Virus record (IMG/VR): IMGVR_UViG_3300034008_000048
Span: 1-46,127 of that record
Strand: one strand, 5' to 3'
DNA from: a virus
Taxonomy: Duplodnaviria; Caudoviricetes
DNA length: 46,127 nt
The first letter of the stretch is position 1. Every line of letters begins with the position of its first letter. The translations under genes and the position numbers were made by a program. The notes under the pieces were generated by a model, which was not told where the DNA came from, made no database searches, and saw nothing but the letters and a program-made list of their open reading frames with translations. Shown piece by piece: positions 17,782 to 30,612 of the stretch.

Positions 17782-18044
17782 TAGCTACCCGACATGCGGC
17801 CGAGTTCACCGACCTTGACGCGTAGGTGTTCCACCGACATGTTGATGTCCGACGCTGCGGCGCTTAGTCTCGTTAGCGCGTCCTGGGCGCTAACGGCATT
17901 GGTAATGCGTTTCGCGCTGGCGAAGCCGTTATGGTGGTGAGTGTCGATTTCCCATGTGATGGCCTCGAGTCGAGACTTGAGGTCCGTGACATAGTCGTCT
18001 AGAGCTTCTGTAACTTCGAGCTCGAAAGAGCCTTCGTCTGTCAT
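17778..18044 (-). CDS. Hypothetical helical protein, last gene of leftward operon
   Basis: ATGA overlap with relaxase stop. Confidence 0.6.
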
Positions 18045-18736
18045 TGCTTACCTGCTTTCTGTGCTGTGATGGCGGTCAAGAACTCGTCGAGCGTGTAGAC
18101 CGTGACGAGTTCGCGGTGGTGTGGCTGCATGAGGCGGCCGATGCGCCACTTCAAGTAGTCGTCCCGTGCCACGAACGCCACCTCGGGATAGAAGCCGCCC
18201 TGCGCGTTCTCATAGGCTTCCCAGTGCGCGGTGAGCTTCTGCTTGATCAGGTCGGCCCTGGCGTGCTCCTGGACCTCGACGTAATACGGGCGTCGCTTGC
18301 TGAGGGCTGGCAGTCCGAAGTCCACGTACAGGTCGACACGCATGTTGCCCACGACGTGCTCAATGTCAGTCGCCGGCAACAGCTTGATGGTGCCTGCTCT
18401 GTCCAGCTCGACGAGCTTGGTGAAGATATCAGCGATGTGCAGGCTGTGCTCGCGGATAGCCGTGATGCTGGGGTACTCCCCCTGGCGGCGCAGATACCAC
18501 CAGCCTTTAGGACCGAGCACGTAGACGCTGGGCGGTGTTCCCTTGCTCTGTCCCCTTGCCCGTGCTCCCAGCCGCTTGATCAGCTTGTCGTCGCGTAGGC
18601 GTTTGATGCAGCGGTCCATGCTGATGCGGTTGACGTCAGCGAACAGCAGCGTCTTCAAGTGCATAGTGCTTACTTGGCCCAGCCGCGACACCATGATGAC
18701 GACTTGCCGGTCACGGTCAGACAGCTCGAACTTCAC
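18041..18736 (-). CDS. Replication-relaxation (Replic_Relax)-family protein, wHTH plus PD-(D/E)XK-like domain
   Basis: LSDRD N-terminus; RCIKRL; VYVLGPKG; HSLHIAD; RVD...YVEVQ; coupled to the ATPase. Confidence 0.75.
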   Translation of the reverse strand: MKFELSDRDRQVVIMVSRLGQVSTMHLKTLLFADVNRISMDRCIKRLRDDKLIKRLGARARGQSKGTPPSVYVLGPKGWWYLRRQGEYPSITAIREHSLHIADIFTKLVELDRAGTIKLLPATDIEHVVGNMRVDLYVDFGLPALSKRRPYYVEVQEHARADLIKQKLTAHWEAYENAQGGFYPEVAFVARDDYLKWRIGRLMQPHHRELVTVYTLDEFLTAITAQKAGKQ

Positions 18737-21027
18737 GCGTCGTCCTCCCAGTCGACTTCGCCCACGACAGGCCGATCATCGGTGTCCCCGACGCCGAGCT
18801 GGCGACGCCGGATAAGGGCGGCGTTCACGTCGGCCACGCTGCGGCCGTAGCGAGCACGTGAGCGTTCCTTGGCCTGCTTGCCGTAGTTGTACGGCTCTAA
18901 GGGCGGCAGGGTGCGGCCAGTGAAGGGCGGGCTGATGCCGTCCTCGGACGCGACCCGCGCCATGAACTCGTACTTGCCGAGCATCTTCATGTCGTCGGGC
19001 GTGACTGGCTTGCCGAACTCCATAGAGAAGGTGCTGGCGTCCTTGAGTCCGCGCTGAAACACCACCTTATTGACGGCGTTGTTCATGACGCCGTCTGCCA
19101 CAGGTTGACGTCCCTGTAGCTGGTCGAGGCCCTGGTGCATGAGGTGGAACTGGGCGCCCGCGCTGCGGCCCTCTTGCAGCATTACGTCAATCGGCACTGG
19201 GCTGTGGACGAAGTGCTGGAACTCGTCGAGCATGATGGCGAACGGGTTGGCTTCGTTCGTGTAGCCCGCTCTCAGCGCGTGCCAGATGTTGTTGATCAGC
19301 ATGGAGCCGATTAGCGAGGCGACTTCCTCGGGCAAACCCTTCAAATTGACGAAGAGCAGCTTGTTGTTCTTGACGATGTCGAGCAGGTCAATGCTGCTCT
19401 CCGTCTGCCCGATGATGTTGCGAATCTCGGCGCGGCTGTTGAGCTGCCAGATCCTCGAGCGCAGACTCTCGAAGTAGGTGTCACGCTGCTTCGGTGCCAG
19501 CTTGTCTATGTTGTGCCACCACCCCTTGATGTACGGGTCGGTCAAGCCTTCGATGATTGCCTTGCGGAACTGCTGCTCTTGCCGAGTACTTGGTGAGATA
19601 AGCGGCACGATGTCGACGAACGCGAACGGCCCCGGTGCCTTCGTCGTCATGAGCGTGATGAGCAAGTGGTACAGCGTCTCGGGCACTCGAACAGCGCCCG
19701 TGTCCCGGTAAATGCTGGTGAAGATTGTCTGCACGTCCGAAGCCACGGTCTGCGGGTTGCCTTGGGTAAGCAGGTTCAAACCGACCGGCCTGAGCGTGTC
19801 AGTGACGTCGAAGACGATGACGTCGTCCAGGCGGTCACGTGGGACGTAGTCGAGTAGGCCGTTGAACAGGTCGCCCTTCGGGTCGATGCCTAGTAGGCCG
19901 CGTCCCTCCTGCATGATCTGGGCGGCCAAGTTGAGCCCGAGTGTCGTCTTGCCTGAGCCGGTCCTCCCGACGATGTGCCAGTGCTTGGAGCTGTCGACGA
20001 CCGACACCGCCAACTTGCGCGGGTTACTCGGGTGATTGCTTTCGCCGAATACGCGGCCCTTACTGAGGACGCCGGGGCTTGCGGCGAGCGGCCGGGTGGC
20101 TGCACCTGGTAGACCGGCAATCTGCGCGCCCTTGATGCGCCAACCGAGCAGGGCGGCTAACTCCATGGTGCTGAGCTGCACCATGCTGTCGAGCGCAGAG
20201 GGGCGGACGGCGCGTGCGGCCCTGATGTCACTGACTACCGTGTCGAGCTTGCGGCGGTTGAGTTGCCAGTGCGTCTCACCGCTCGCCGTGGCGGCAAAGC
20301 GGTGACGGACATCTTGGACGAGCTGGCGAGCCTTGGGCTCCGTTTTCGCGTGCGCGCCGACGCGAAGGATGCCCCGGTAGTTTGGCTCGCTGAGCTTGCT
20401 GCGCCTAGACGACACCTCGTCACGACTGGCACTGCGGGGCGCGTGTAGGACGTTGCTGTAGCGGAACACGTCGGACAACACATCGTCACCTGGTGGGCGC
20501 TGACGTCTGGCTGGACTGAGCACGAACTGGACGACGACGTACTCCCCCTCGCTCAGCGCGTCGATCGACTTCAGGATGCTGGTGCTGATGTCGGCCGCGT
20601 GCCTGGTGTCTTTGATGTCGAGCGGCTTGCTGGGGCTGGTCATGCCAACCTCGACCGCGTAGGTGAGCGAGTAGTCGAAGGGTTCCTCGACGACGCCAGC
20701 CGCCATGCCAGGTATGGAACCGTGGAGTTGACGGATGATGCCGCCCGCCAGCACGTGAGGTAGCCGGATGAACGCACGGATGCGGTTGCCGTCTGCGTGC
20801 AGCTCGAAGGCCGTCGTCATGACGCCGCCAAGCTTGCGAGCGGGGGGCACGGCGCTGACGTTTCGCAGAAAGGCGATAACGCGGTCCACTTCTAAGTCGT
20901 TAGGGAAGGTGAGTTCATATGTGGCGCGATCTTTGTCGCGTCGTTTCTGGTTGAACGATTTGAGCAAGGCGGCTCCTGTTGGTATAAACAGTCCGGAAAG
21001 CAGTAGGAGGATAAACAGGGCGGCCAT
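18733..21027 (-). CDS. VirD4/TraD-like type IV coupling ATPase
   Basis: N-terminal TM; HWHIVGRTGSGKT Walker A; IDPKGD; MLDEFQHF Walker B; EGRS...HQ.L.QL; PFTGRT. Confidence 0.85.
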   Translation of the reverse strand: MAALFILLLLSGLFIPTGAALLKSFNQKRRDKDRATYELTFPNDLEVDRVIAFLRNVSAVPPARKLGGVMTTAFELHADGNRIRAFIRLPHVLAGGIIRQLHGSIPGMAAGVVEEPFDYSLTYAVEVGMTSPSKPLDIKDTRHAADISTSILKSIDALSEGEYVVVQFVLSPARRQRPPGDDVLSDVFRYSNVLHAPRSASRDEVSSRRSKLSEPNYRGILRVGAHAKTEPKARQLVQDVRHRFAATASGETHWQLNRRKLDTVVSDIRAARAVRPSALDSMVQLSTMELAALLGWRIKGAQIAGLPGAATRPLAASPGVLSKGRVFGESNHPSNPRKLAVSVVDSSKHWHIVGRTGSGKTTLGLNLAAQIMQEGRGLLGIDPKGDLFNGLLDYVPRDRLDDVIVFDVTDTLRPVGLNLLTQGNPQTVASDVQTIFTSIYRDTGAVRVPETLYHLLITLMTTKAPGPFAFVDIVPLISPSTRQEQQFRKAIIEGLTDPYIKGWWHNIDKLAPKQRDTYFESLRSRIWQLNSRAEIRNIIGQTESSIDLLDIVKNNKLLFVNLKGLPEEVASLIGSMLINNIWHALRAGYTNEANPFAIMLDEFQHFVHSPVPIDVMLQEGRSAGAQFHLMHQGLDQLQGRQPVADGVMNNAVNKVVFQRGLKDASTFSMEFGKPVTPDDMKMLGKYEFMARVASEDGISPPFTGRTLPPLEPYNYGKQAKERSRARYGRSVADVNAALIRRRQLGVGDTDDRPVVGEVDWEDDA

Positions 21028-26413: not shown

Positions 26414-26566
26414 TTCGTTCTAGGCACTTTTTACTACCCTATAGATAGGGCTAATTCGTGTCGTTAGCGTCGCTTCTTGCCTCGTCCAGGACGAAGGCCG
26501 GGGGGGAACCTTCGATCGGGGGTCCTGGGCGAGGTCTCAAATCCCCCCCACAGAAAGATGCTATAT

Positions 26567-27193
26567 ATGCGCGTCTTAATGGCCGCGATTTTGTCGGCCT
26601 CATTGATAGGGCTTACGCCGCCAGTTCAGGCGGCCGATACCACCCCGACCGTCCGGCAGGCGTTACGCCACGTCGATAACGGCACGTGGACGACTGCCGA
26701 TCTACGGGTCATCAAGCGTCACCCTAGGATCGCCGCCAAGGTGGCCGACCCTCGAGCGCCTGAGCAGTCGGGAAGTCGCAGCGGTTCTAGCGCGACTGTC
26801 GAGCGTCAGATGACGAGAGGCATTTCTACCGTAGCCAGGGCCAGGTTGGGTCGATGCGGTTACTGGTACCTGGCATGGTTCCGTAAGCGCTCGCTGCTGC
26901 GGAACACGATGTACAAGTACTACCACCGCGTCGACTACTGCAAGACCAGTCGGAGGATAACGCGCTGGCAACATCGGACGGACTTCTGGCGGGAACCCGA
27001 CACTATCGCCTACTGGCGTGAGCTGGTCGAGAACCGGCGCAGAGGACGCGGCACACGGGTCGCCTACTCAACGCGTATGCGTCACATCGCGTTCTGCCTT
27101 GTGAAGCTAGGTTGTTACCAGTCGTTCTATCCTTGGGTCACTCTGACCATCCGGGCGAACGGTCGGAACCGGTATCGCGGGAGCGCCGGATGA
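26567..27193 (+). CDS. Secreted, highly Arg-rich protein
   Basis: Signal peptide ending VQA; four Cys in the C-terminal domain. Confidence 0.7.
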   Translation: MRVLMAAILSASLIGLTPPVQAADTTPTVRQALRHVDNGTWTTADLRVIKRHPRIAAKVADPRAPEQSGSRSGSSATVERQMTRGISTVARARLGRCGYWYLAWFRKRSLLRNTMYKYYHRVDYCKTSRRITRWQHRTDFWREPDTIAYWRELVENRRRGRGTRVAYSTRMRHIAFCLVKLGCYQSFYPWVTLTIRANGRNRYRGSAG

Positions 27194-27366
27194 TCGCGCT
27201 ACTCGTCAAGGGCGTACTGGGATTGCTCAACGGCTTCATCCTGATAGTCCTGTTGGGCATGCTAGGTGTTCCGCTGGGGCCAATCGAGGTCAGCATCCTC
27301 TTGGCGTTTAGTGTGGTGGCCTTGCTGTTCGTTACGAGGAATCGTAAGACCATGTGCCAGCAGTAA
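27190..27366 (+). CDS. 58-aa 2-TM protein
   Basis: ATGA overlap; two TMs. Confidence 0.65.
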   Translation: MIALLVKGVLGLLNGFILIVLLGMLGVPLGPIEVSILLAFSVVALLFVTRNRKTMCQQ

Positions 27367-27383
27367 GAGAGCTGCACCCCTGT

Positions 27384-27440
27384 GTCCCCCAGTAGGTTAC
27401 GTATGCGCTTGCGACGTAACCTACTGGGGGACTTTTCTTT
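27384..27440 (+). terminator. Strong intrinsic terminator
   Basis: 19-bp perfect inverted repeat 27384-27402/27414-27432 followed by TTTTCTTT. Confidence 0.8.
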
Positions 27441-27469
27441 GTCTCCGCACGGCGTATAACTAGTGGTAG

Positions 27470-27595
27470 ATGGAGTTTTTTGAAGAGCACGAAAGGTCAG
27501 AGCAGGGCGTGATTCCACGCGAGGTCATCATTGTGACCCCTGAGGTGTTAGCAATTCGCGCGCTGATCGATCACTTCGGCCTTGATGAATCTTGA
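27470..27595 (+). CDS. 41-aa acidic microprotein, possibly leaderless
   Basis: TATAAC 9 nt upstream; MEFFEEHERSEQGVIPREV... Confidence 0.35.
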   Translation: MEFFEEHERSEQGVIPREVIIVTPEVLAIRALIDHFGLDES

Positions 27596-27717
27596 CGCTT
27601 GTGCGTAAATGGACGCAACTGAACGACTCACCAGACATGAGTCAAGTAGGGGGTAAAAGTAGGTGAAAATGAAAGAGAGACGCGTTACGCGCCCCTCATG
27701 TTTACTGTGTTTGTTAG

Positions 27718-27745
27718 GTGACTCACCAGACACTTACAGTATAAT
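27718..27745 (+). promoter_or_regulatory. Promoter for the large ncRNA
   Basis: GTGACT-N16-TATAAT. Confidence 0.5.
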
Positions 27746-27751
27746 TCATAG

Positions 27752-28732
27752 CAGCACTTTTGCAAATACTTTGACATCTCCCAGGTAGTAGTCCTGGGTT
27801 CATACAGTCACATGGCGATGCAAGTTGGCGTAATGAGAAATTGGTATCGAGTCCCGAAAGGGTAGCCCTAGTGCAGGTTCGAGTCCTGTCTTGCATCGTC
27901 GCTCGTGTGTAGTAGTGCGGGTAGTAAGACGCCCCAGCTAATGTAGCGAAGCGCGATGCTGAAGGCTTAGCGGCTGGAGCGACAGGCAAAGCAGAGGGCC
28001 CCTTGCGAAGTAGTTAGCGCGATGAACGTGGGGATTAATGTGAGCTAGCGTTAGCTGCGGGGTTTTGCTACTGGCACCATACACACGAGCACGCGGGAAT
28101 GGGAGGGCAGCCCAAAAAGAGTGATCTGCGGCAGGGTGCGGCCTTCGGGCCAATCTGCTATCCGGCCAGGCTCATCCCGCACCATGTGACTGTATGAAGA
28201 TAAGGTAGCTGTGAGGTGGCAAACGTCCTCATGAGTCGTTAGAGCTTGTCTCTTGCCTTAAACGCAAGTCATGCTTGCGGCCTCTCACATACCTTCAAAC
28301 CAAGGTCCGGGTTACCCCGGGGCTTGAAAACTATAGTGCGTGCCACATTCCCTGCCCCAGCGCATAGTCCCTGACCGTACAGCGAGCGTTCTCAGGCTTG
28401 GCCCACCGTGACTAACCATCAACGGGCCCGACTTACAGAGCGCTTGAGTTGCTGATCATCCTGTTGGAACAGACCCCAACTGGCAAGGCCGGAGCAGTCC
28501 GTGAGCACTTGGCAGGATGAGAGAGCAAGATGTCATTGGTTCGCAGTTCTCGTCTCCTGCAAGTAGTAGGGGAAGTCGGGGATATTGTCTTAGGTAAAGC
28601 ATTAGCGTATATTGCCAGTAACGGGACAGCACCGTCGTACTTAAATCAGACACCAGAAGCTTCCAAGCTTCCAAGCTTCATACACACATTCTCTTGACAC
28701 CGCCTCAGCCCACCCGAGGCGGTGTTTCTTTT
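27752..28732 (+). ncRNA. Large ornate structured ncRNA (GOLLD/ROOL-class candidate) with embedded tRNA-like domain
   Basis: No credible ORF; 17-bp and 11-bp perfect nested helices, many hairpins, UUCG/GAAA tetraloops; promoter and terminator bound it. Confidence 0.75.
28696..28732 (+). terminator. Intrinsic terminator of the large ncRNA
   Basis: GACACCGCCTC/GAGGCGGTGTT followed by TCTTTT. Confidence 0.8.
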
Positions 28733-28733
28733 G

Positions 28734-28762
28734 TTGACGGTATCTAACTGACCCGTCACAAT
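28734..28762 (+). promoter_or_regulatory. Promoter for the second ncRNA
   Basis: TTGACG-N17-CACAAT. Confidence 0.55.
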
Positions 28763-28767
28763 TGATC

Positions 28768-29056
28768 GTGTCCACTACGGACCGCATTGACGGTGAGCTT
28801 GCATGGTGCTCCCGTTATCCCACTGCTGGACAAGACGACGCTGCACCCTCGGCGTCGTCTTTCGTTTGCCAGAGCTGCGGCCGATCTGAGCCGGATGTAA
28901 GCGGTAGCTCCTGTTCGTCGCCCAGTCCAGTGACTTTGCTACTACTACAGAGGTCATCTTCGCTGCTCAGCGGCCTAGTGGGTGCTGTCATTGGACAGCA
29001 TTGAGCCAGCGGGCCTAACCAGCAAGGGGGTGTTCAGATCGAACACCCCCTTTTTC
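28768..29056 (+). ncRNA. ~290-nt multibranch structured RNA
   Basis: 5' end pairs with 28976-28985; 10-bp hairpin 28832-28861; ends at terminator 29024-29056. Confidence 0.6.
29024..29056 (+). terminator. Intrinsic terminator
   Basis: 12-bp perfect AAGGGGGTGTTC/GAACACCCCCTT followed by TTT. Confidence 0.75.
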
Positions 29057-29151
29057 CACAGCCTTTTATAAGTCTTGTATTGCCATTTGGTTAGCCACGT
29101 GTTTAAGTGAATGCATAACCTAATCCATGCAAAAGGGGGCCACCGACTTAC

Positions 29152-29388
29152 ATGACAAAGCAACCAGCCAGGAAACGCAGCACCGTCCTGGCGATCCGTA
29201 CCCGACCAGTCATCAAGGCGTTCGTGCAAGACCAGGCCAAGGCCAACAGCATAAGCGTCCGCGAGTACGTCGAGGAGGTGCTCATTAGAAACACAGCGTA
29301 TACACGCTTCAAAAAGCAGTGGAGGGACACACATGCCAAGCCAGACCAAACGAGAAACGATCACGACGACGGTGACGCGAGCAGCTAA
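29152..29388 (+). CDS. Ribbon-helix-helix DNA-binding protein
   Basis: VLAIR strand followed by two helices, ISVREYVEEVL; first gene of the rightward early operon. Confidence 0.6.
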   Translation: MTKQPARKRSTVLAIRTRPVIKAFVQDQAKANSISVREYVEEVLIRNTAYTRFKKQWRDTHAKPDQTRNDHDDGDASS

Positions 29389-29677
29389 CGGCCGCTTCGC
29401 ACCTAAGCGGATCGCTAACAGGCTCGCCACGACGCGCAACGAGCGACGGCGCACCGAGAACATGGAAGCTATGAACACGCCAGTCACAAGTGACTATGAG
29501 AATACGGCGATACGAAAGGCACCAAAGCGCACGTCGAACGGGCAGGGCCACGTCGATACATCCAGCTTGTGGCCATCTGAGTTCCAGGTAGGCGTGGTTG
29601 TTGGTGGACTTGCCACGGCCGCTCTGATCTTTCTCGGCATGATCCTTAAGGCGGTGATGGACGTACAGGCTGTATGA
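29333..29677 (+). CDS. C-terminal TM protein
   Basis: GGAGG RBS; RAANGRF motif; TM helix. Confidence 0.6.
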   Translation: MPSQTKRETITTTVTRAANGRFAPKRIANRLATTRNERRRTENMEAMNTPVTSDYENTAIRKAPKRTSNGQGHVDTSSLWPSEFQVGVVVGGLATAALIFLGMILKAVMDVQAV

Positions 29678-30612
29678 GTGACACGAAGAAACGGTCCGGC
29701 AGCCTCGACCCCGTCGCACCTGATAGCAGTGCCATCGAGCGCTACGAAGCTGAGCAGCCAAACGCGATCTCCATTCGCTCTATTGACGACATCAAACGCA
29801 TGTCCCTGATCTTCGTCCAGAGCGGCATGTTCAAAGGCGATACCCGCCTCAGTGAGCAGACCAAGATGTACCAGGCCGGGGTCAAGATCATCGCCGGTGT
29901 CGAGTTCGGCATTCAGCCGTTCGCGGCTATGCGCGGTATCAACATCATCAACGGCAACGCTGAGATGTCCGCCAACCTCATGGCAGCCAAGGTAAAGAAG
30001 CACCCGAAGTACGACTACCGCGTCACCAAGTGGGACCAGGATGGCTGCGCCATCGACTTCTACGAACTGCCGCACCCGAACGCACCGCGCAAGGAATGGG
30101 ACAAGCTTGGCGAGTCATCATTCAGCGCCGACGACGCTATAGCCGCTGGGTTATCTACAGGAAAGAATGCCGACACTTGGCGAAAATTTGCTCGCAACAT
30201 GTACTTCGCCAGGGCCATCAGCAACGGCGTCCGTATCTACACACCTGACGTGTTCTATGGGGCTCCGGTCTACGTTGAGGGCGAGATCAGCGGCGAGTTC
30301 GGGGACACGCCCCAAGAGGCAGACAAAGCGCCAGCGCAGGAGGCTGAGCTTGTTGACGCAAGTACGCCTACTCCAGAAGTGACTACGAACGGAGTGACGC
30401 GCGAGCAGCTAGGAGTCATGAAGGCCGGGTTTGAAGACCTCAATATCAATGAGCAGAGCGACATGCTCAATTACGTCGGCACTGTGATTGCCCGTCTCGT
30501 CGCCAGCGCGACAGAGCTGACAGAGGATGAGGCAAATCGTGTGATCAGCAAGATGGCATCTGATGTCGAACTGCTTGCTGGTGACGCGCCGGACTACGGA
30601 GCGTCAGCATGA
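29674..30612 (+). CDS. RecT-like single-strand annealing protein
   Basis: G.EFGIQPFAAMRGINII.G and W.KF.RNM.FARA motifs. Confidence 0.7.
   Translation: MSDTKKRSGSLDPVAPDSSAIERYEAEQPNAISIRSIDDIKRMSLIFVQSGMFKGDTRLSEQTKMYQAGVKIIAGVEFGIQPFAAMRGINIINGNAEMSANLMAAKVKKHPKYDYRVTKWDQDGCAIDFYELPHPNAPRKEWDKLGESSFSADDAIAAGLSTGKNADTWRKFARNMYFARAISNGVRIYTPDVFYGAPVYVEGEISGEFGDTPQEADKAPAQEAELVDASTPTPEVTTNGVTREQLGVMKAGFEDLNINEQSDMLNYVGTVIARLVASATELTEDEANRVISKMASDVELLAGDAPDYGASA

Follow-up and report, generated by a model that had tools for sequence, protein, structure and literature searches.

A predicted large, modular and tRNA-derived RNA of a temperate phage, and its possible role as a multivalent decoy

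The DNA analyzed here (46,127 bases, hereafter the window) comprises one entire virus record, which carries direct terminal repeats. Its genes encode terminase, portal, and tail proteins, a serine integrase, a WhiB protein, a Replic_Relax protein, and a RecT-like protein, and the phage is temperate. Close relatives of the RecT-like protein that bear a name come from actinobacteria (Gordonia, Rhodococcus, Dietzia, and Streptomyces), so the host probably belongs to the Actinomycetota. A RecT profile run over 401 genomes of one actinobacterial family matched in two of them. The Replic_Relax gene is a marker of the whole phage family and, together with a gene for a TraG/TrwB/HerA-like ATPase, occupies 18041-21027 within this tailed phage. 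An assembly of a biocrust sequencing run, possibly the record's own source, spans 26500-30000 unbroken and with zero differences. Three sequencing runs are listed as containing the unit described below; all are DNA runs and none is an RNA run, and one of them may be the source of the record.

The unit in question is preceded by a promoter-like site and closed by a terminator-like hairpin (Table 1). A preliminary description, made from the sequence, had placed here a TATAAT promoter, a strong terminator, and no credible open reading frame (ORF) between the two, and each of these statements holds: the promoter-like site carries the TATAAT element, the 10-bp hairpin (28697-28706/28716-28725) is followed by a U-tract, and just two plus-strand ORFs of at least 35 aa lie within the unit (42 and 55 aa). 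The hairpin was missed by the terminator scan because its loop measures 9 nt. Promoter-like sites, read by eye, also lie 5' of the RNAs of three relatives (L013, L271, and L282). An exact 13-nt direct repeat (27625-27637/27720-27732), the second copy of which covers the -35 region and spacer of the promoter-like site, is a possible operator; it has two exact copies, a count that is not significant once two mismatches are allowed. Several further features flank or adjoin the unit ends. A 7-nt unit in short tandem (about three copies) forms a hairpin just 5' of the terminator (28656-28681). Downstream, a second small unit (28734-29055) comprises a promoter-like site (28734-28762), a single ORF of 80 aa that falls into no family, and a strong hairpin of terminator type with a U-tract (29026-29050), and is possibly an sRNA or a small peptide gene. 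Upstream, a strong hairpin at 27375-27415, 3' of a small membrane-protein gene (z = -4.9 in 27300-27499), is likely a terminator.

Table 1. Features of the predicted RNA and its borders in the window
Feature	Position	Strand	Basis
Sigma-70/sigma-A-type promoter-like site, GTGACT-16-TATAAT	27718-27745	+	10/12 consensus matches
Predicted non-coding transcript, ~980 nt	27752-28733	+	Ends inferred from promoter and terminator
Domain A: closing helix P0 (27799-27815/28182-28198, 17 bp) around a three-arm junction	27799-28198	+	z = -4.97
Arm 1: degenerate type-II (Ser/Leu-like) tRNA	27813-27901	+	Rfam tRNA, ARAGORN, homologous arms
Arm 2: conserved two-part helix (socket) with 123-nt cargo	27901-28090	+	Socket common to L282, L285, L288, L217
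Arm 3 (module X): 80-nt three-way-junction module	28093-28180	+	15 matches in 11 contigs
Three local hairpins, weak fold	28202-28368	+	No homologue found
Domain B: conserved structured element (~220 nt) whose loops include invariant stretches	28371-28592	+	Homologues L271, L289
Intrinsic-terminator-like 10-bp hairpin, then U-tract	28697-28733	+	In sequence

The unit folds better than shuffled controls on its plus strand (z = -4.54) and less so on its minus strand (z = -1.53; 20 shuffles each), in keeping with the structure claimed at the outset. The signal is located in the 5' domain, the 3' half reaching z = -1.37. Four helices that had been drawn by eye are exact reverse complements, namely P0, 27901-27911/28080-28090, 28093-28098/28175-28180, and 28456-28463/28513-28520, and P0 is the longest plus-strand long-range stem among the 24 listed of at least 12 bp in the window. 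Closing helices resembling P0 occur in six relatives (L005, L217, L223, L271, L285, and L286). Module X, domain B, and socket are names coined in this analysis.

Arm 1 combines an acceptor stem (27818-27824/27890-27896), extended to 12 bp, and an altered D-arm with a canonical T-arm (27873-27889) that directly precedes the 3' strand of the acceptor. It lacks CCA: the acceptor runs on as a paired helix, with no free 3' NCCA end. Its Rfam tRNA score of 12.8 bits, the only Rfam tRNA match in the genome, is below the 29-bit cut-off; likewise, ARAGORN called it as the genome's only tRNA at the 95% threshold, as tRNA-Ser(cga), and called none at 97% or 100%, and the assignment to Ser is weak. Across arm 1 and its homologues, the 7-bp acceptor, a mostly D-arm-like start, and the T-arm next to the acceptor 3' strand are retained; the anticodon and the CCA end have been altered or have disappeared. 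The RNA of L231 contains a tRNA-Ser(GCU) that is intact and has its CCA (56.6 bits), and this is the only one of the 11 arms compared with NCCA right after the acceptor. In the helix of arm 1, L288 and L285 carry clear tRNA bodies, degenerate as in the window, and L286 and L182 carry tRNA bodies with T-loop inserts of 67 and 82 nt, respectively. Read from sequence, this series from intact tRNA through degenerate body to T-loop insert shows the tRNA ancestry of arm 1. Two related candidates were dropped. A CCA sequestered at the ends of socket helices was rejected, as CCA occurs 19 times on 3' strands versus 12 times on 5' strands in 17 RNAs (L288, near-identical to L285/L286, being omitted), a skew smaller than that of many other trinucleotides; a T-arm-like hairpin at 16905 of L182 lies inside a coding gene.

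Arm 2 is a socket of conserved helices, for the 123-nt cargo of which no homologue was found; in L282, L285, L288, and L217, the same socket holds different cargo of 48-184 nt. The outer socket helices have changed in sequence and yet remain paired, at 11-12 of 14 positions in five of five cases, and the cargo within the conserved helices is swapped from phage to phage. Four relatives without module X (L182, L184, L185, and L231) have an ORF-free, folded stretch of 650-900 nt at the matching place before the early genes, tied to the carriers of module X via other shared segments. By a rough estimate from eight shuffles, the second RNA of L271 and the stretches of L184, L185, L282, L231, L182, and L285 fold with z of -5 to -16, and the antisense strand folds about equally or better in four of nine relatives' stretches (L184, L185, L282, and L182). 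A table of motifs in 18 RNAs has modules and sockets in varying combinations. At least three more conserved RNA modules, none of them in Rfam, occur in relatives and are absent from the window (L182 18095-18270, L184 18680-18840, L185 17986-18142, L231 6113-6236, L005 14038-14142, and L217 2327-2430). Separately, an element of about 100 nt with inverted-repeat ends of 13-18 bp, possibly a regulatory or origin element, is present in L182 (6191-6291), L185 (7478-7576), and L230 (17124-17227), which are clearly alike, and in L184 (6933-7038), which is less so.

In module X, an outer helix (P1) leads through a purine internal loop and a GGC/GCC stem (P2) to a three-way junction with two hairpins, one GNRA-capped (13 of 15 alignment rows) and the other mostly UUCG-capped. 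In the 15-row alignment, 16 of 19 pairs have changes on both sides and 97.9% of cells are paired, a result reached by 0 of 500 shuffles, and slid controls pair at 19-43%; these figures lean upward because the model guided the alignment, 10 of the 15 rows went into building that model, and several rows were found with patterns that fix part of the stems. The invariant bases lie mostly in stems (among them a U-A pair in P1), with few in loops, a pattern more in keeping with an architectural or protein-binding module than with a catalytic core. No fixed pairing between the two linkers was found in the 13 of 15 rows used, and a likeness to the SRP S-domain loop was set aside, as the covariation supports another register.

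The distribution of module X is patchy. L005, one of three RecT relatives, matches 28091-28156 with 79% identity within an ORF-free 1-kb stretch (fold z = -5.68), and a three-copy model retrieved two further diverged copies there unaided. RNAs with the module hold one to three copies (three in L005, two each in L217 and L285), the other relatives have none, and such variation in copy number suits a binding site. The module is present in 7 of 25 Replic_Relax loci, 19 of which were also searched as whole records with two modules recovered and two weak ones missed; it was not found in three of the five records first tested, nor in 80 kb around the G039 prophage. Further copies were added by the Replic_Relax search and by pattern scans, the true matches of which numbered 2 of 13, 7 of 23 (four identical), 4 of 4 (one new), and 3 of 27 (none new). 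Two more scans gave nothing new in 36 and 49 matches, and a scan of GTDB genomes gave 71 matches, none true and all GC-rich chance occurrences. A match in G010 was rejected as chance, in a coding region, and weak matches in L203, L207, L211, and L222 were dropped as coding. At L224 964-1042, and identically in L208, L213, and L219, the module overlaps the end of a 49-aa ORF, whose UGA stop in L224 falls within the GUGA tetraloop and is closely followed by the next ribosome-binding site.

Domain B was recognized when 28382-28636 was compared with the 25 Replic_Relax loci and matched L271 (E = 2e-26) and L289 (E = 4e-15); it is present in 2 of 22 whole records searched, and its motif was not found in 401 sampled Actinomycetota genomes. 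The three sequences are 63-77% identical, and changes on both sides affect 14 of 56 predicted pairs, a covariation count drawn from these three sequences; an added helix (28449-28453/28524-28528) has compensatory changes in 4 of 5 pairs. Four stretches of 8-13 nt are invariant, with loops held constant as stems vary. The stretch folds weakly (z = -1.4 in the window, -3.2 in L271, and -1.6 in L289). Of two separate domains drawn here earlier, that at 28380-28454 is supported by the homologues and the pair changes; for that at 28456-28520, the helix is exact and the homologues support it in part only. The three sequences contain no covarying pseudoknot, though an invariant stretch of 5 bp (28432-28436/28501-28505) could form a crossing pairing. 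A likeness to the P4 region of RNase P was set aside because the strand order does not fit. In L271, domain B stands alone in its own unit, with a convergent gene downstream and a domain-A-type RNA about 1.5 kb away; the most fitting view of the window RNA is therefore that two units, domain A and domain B, have been fused. For the stretch between them (28202-28368), no homologue was found among the relatives compared.

Three non-nested complementarities proposed as pseudoknots are unsupported. Pairings of 6-8 bp are at chance level here because 1-kb slices of the window each hold 4-23 perfect stems of at least 8 bp, and none of the three is kept in homologues: ACTGGCAA/TTGCCAGT is not among the helices common to all three domain-B sequences, the GGC of GGCAGGG (28130, proposed to pair with 28350) is already used by the covarying P2 stem of module X, and both strands of 28216/28341 lie in the stretch without homologues. 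Of the ornate single fold first envisaged, what stands is a large structured phage RNA with a tRNA-like arm, supported by folding, homologues, and covariation; in place of one pseudoknotted fold, the data favor separable modules on a tRNA-derived scaffold.

Comparison with known families, proposed in the preliminary description, was made with cmscan against Rfam 15; nothing in the window reached the gathering score. The suggested membership in GOLLD (RF02032) or ROOL (RF03087) is not borne out: the GOLLD model had 0 matches at E<=10 in the genome and none in cmscan of the window or relatives, and ROOL had no cmscan match and 0 in a single-family search, whose control was equally silent. Likewise, no Rfam match in the window was found for tmRNA, RNase P, OLE, group I/II introns, or known ribozymes and riboswitches in their unpermuted forms. 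At E<=10, 27400-29200 gave three unrelated sub-threshold matches, none within module X or on the tmRNA, RNase P, OLE, intron, ribozyme, or riboswitch families. The relatives' RNAs matched nothing in Rfam apart from one true tRNA, ARAGORN detected no tmRNA, and BLAST against GenBank phages and plasmids returned no real homologue, the single match inspected being unrelated. The family was also not found in a literature search that covered the smaller part of the subscription papers, so an earlier description outside Rfam is possible.

Taken together, these observations make it very probable that the unit specifies a real, selected structured RNA. For its role, the favored reading, with a probability of roughly 40%, is that of a new family of modular, tRNA-derived phage RNAs serving as putative multivalent decoys. 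The gene-free unit from promoter to terminator would yield the RNA of about 980 nt, a tRNA-derived helical scaffold with exchangeable modules. Since the unit in the window phage contains no ORF and ends at a terminator, the RNA may act in trans, as a decoy for host proteins that recognize tRNA or other RNA (defence nucleases, toxins, or stress sensors), in early infection or lysogeny. Arms with T- and D-like loops and without CCA would not be chargeable and could thus be mimics, and the shuffling of modules could reflect selection by differing host defences, much as in accessory-gene hotspots. The multivalent decoy fits best because the tRNA elbow is kept and charging features are lost, because module X varies from zero to three copies, and because the early region is variable, the family RNAs being located behind promoter-like sites in the early-gene region. 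Two reports describe tRNAs as targets of bacterial immunity and an anti-CRISPR that acts as a protein-RNA complex (PMC12851939, PMC11662646). Against the decoy reading stand the antisense strands that fold as well in four of nine relatives' stretches, the upward lean of the module X figures, the sub-threshold tRNA score of arm 1, and, for domain B, its three sequences and weak fold. Most relatives' RNAs also continue directly into an ORF on the same strand, and no terminator was seen between the two (L005, L013, L217, L237, L182, L184, L185, and L231), so a cis role fits them too.

A broader proposal, more doubtful than the decoy itself, is that a tRNA cluster has given rise to a combinatorial platform in which acceptor-like helices act as sockets. 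The swappable modules, which include the tRNA mimics, module X, and domain B as well as three or more others present in relatives, would each counter a different host system as decoy or effector. If true, such a platform would parallel, at the level of RNA, the islands of anti-defence proteins, and domain B could be a new class of ribozyme or aptamer.

That the RNA forms an RNA-only multimer or cage in the manner of GOLLD or ROOL, with the GNRA and invariant loops as intermolecular contacts and the tRNA-like arms as cargo, is unlikely. GOLLD is described as a large RNA of phages or prophages, often >800 nt, whose function is unknown and some members of which bear a tRNA in a linker, and a large phage RNA with an embedded tRNA-like part recalls those linkers (10.1101/2024.12.08.627333, PMC12990946). 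Moreover, the GNRA loop of module X and the invariant U-A pair of P1 could form a loop-receptor pair, and the loops of domain B are invariant on varying stems. However, the family has no universal core, with module X in only 7 of 25 loci and domain B in 2 of 22 records, in contrast to the 3' region of GOLLD, which is reported to be universally conserved (10.1101/2024.12.08.627333). The absence of any covarying pseudoknot among the three domain-B sequences also speaks against a cage.

Somewhat less probable is a processing or catalytic cassette, in which the tRNA-like arms and long helices would direct cleavage by RNase P or RNase III; alternatively, module X or domain B would be a new self-cleaving ribozyme or a ligand-binding aptamer. 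Self-cleaving ribozymes often stand nearly alone between ORFs, and module X has just such a placement in L224. Helices of 13-21 bp are common, and domain B has its four invariant stretches at 63-77% overall identity. Opposed to this are the lack of any Rfam ribozyme or riboswitch match, the few invariant unpaired bases of module X, and the want of a common gene downstream of domain B.

A cis-acting leader of the early operon, for example a put-like antiterminator that carries transcription through two terminators (28697 and 29026) to reach the early genes, is distinctly improbable. Most relatives' RNAs do lie between a promoter-like site and same-strand early genes, and two terminator-like hairpins separate the window RNA from such genes; nevertheless, the downstream unit has a separate promoter-like site after the first terminator, domain B of L271 has no same-strand gene behind it, and three copies of module X on a scaffold of 0.5-1 kb would seem to exceed the needs of such a signal. 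Least probable of all is that the unit lacks any function as RNA and is either a tRNA cluster in decay or an inverted-repeat element acting at the DNA level, for although the arms are degenerate tRNAs and sense and antisense energies are close in several relatives' stretches, compensatory changes mark modules X and B, UUCG and GNRA loops lie on the promoter strand, loops are kept while stems change, and the outer socket helices still pair.

Large structured bacterial RNAs are rare, and their biochemistry is often unusual. The present family is absent from Rfam 15 and stands apart from GOLLD and ROOL because it lacks a fixed core and fits the same helices with differing cargo. The graded series from intact tRNA to loop-inserted tRNA bodies would document, in nature, how tRNA gives rise to new RNA domains, and the two small, covariation-supported modules (80 and 220 nt) are directly testable for catalysis, ligand or protein binding, and self-assembly.

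Finally, the family can be placed beside known systems. Like GOLLD, the window RNA is phage-borne (here in a 46-kb record), similar in size, and associated with a tRNA-like arm; unlike GOLLD, its family has no universally conserved 3' domain and exchanges modules, and its tRNA-like parts are the scaffold arms themselves and mostly non-canonical. ROOL, which one report describes as a large multi-junction RNA frequent in prophages near tRNAs (PMC5737381), shares the large multi-junction architecture, yet it has one fold of ~581 nt with three pseudoknots, whereas no covarying pseudoknot was found among the three domain-B sequences of the window family, whose length ranges from ~80 to 1000 nt. With phage tRNA genes and clusters (RF00005), arm 1 has in common an acceptor stem and T-arm, and one relative has the intact tRNA-Ser(GCU); in contrast to them, arm 1 scores below the cut-off, lacks CCA, and extends its acceptor into the junction, and the relatives' arms bear large D- and T-loop inserts. 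In the tRNA-like domain of tmRNA and in the YrlA Y RNA, a tRNA elbow is fused to an unrelated RNA structure, and the window family likewise joins a tRNA elbow to unrelated RNA structure; it differs from both in having no match to the Rfam tmRNA or Y RNA models and in carrying, in L285 and L217, several tRNA-like arms per molecule.
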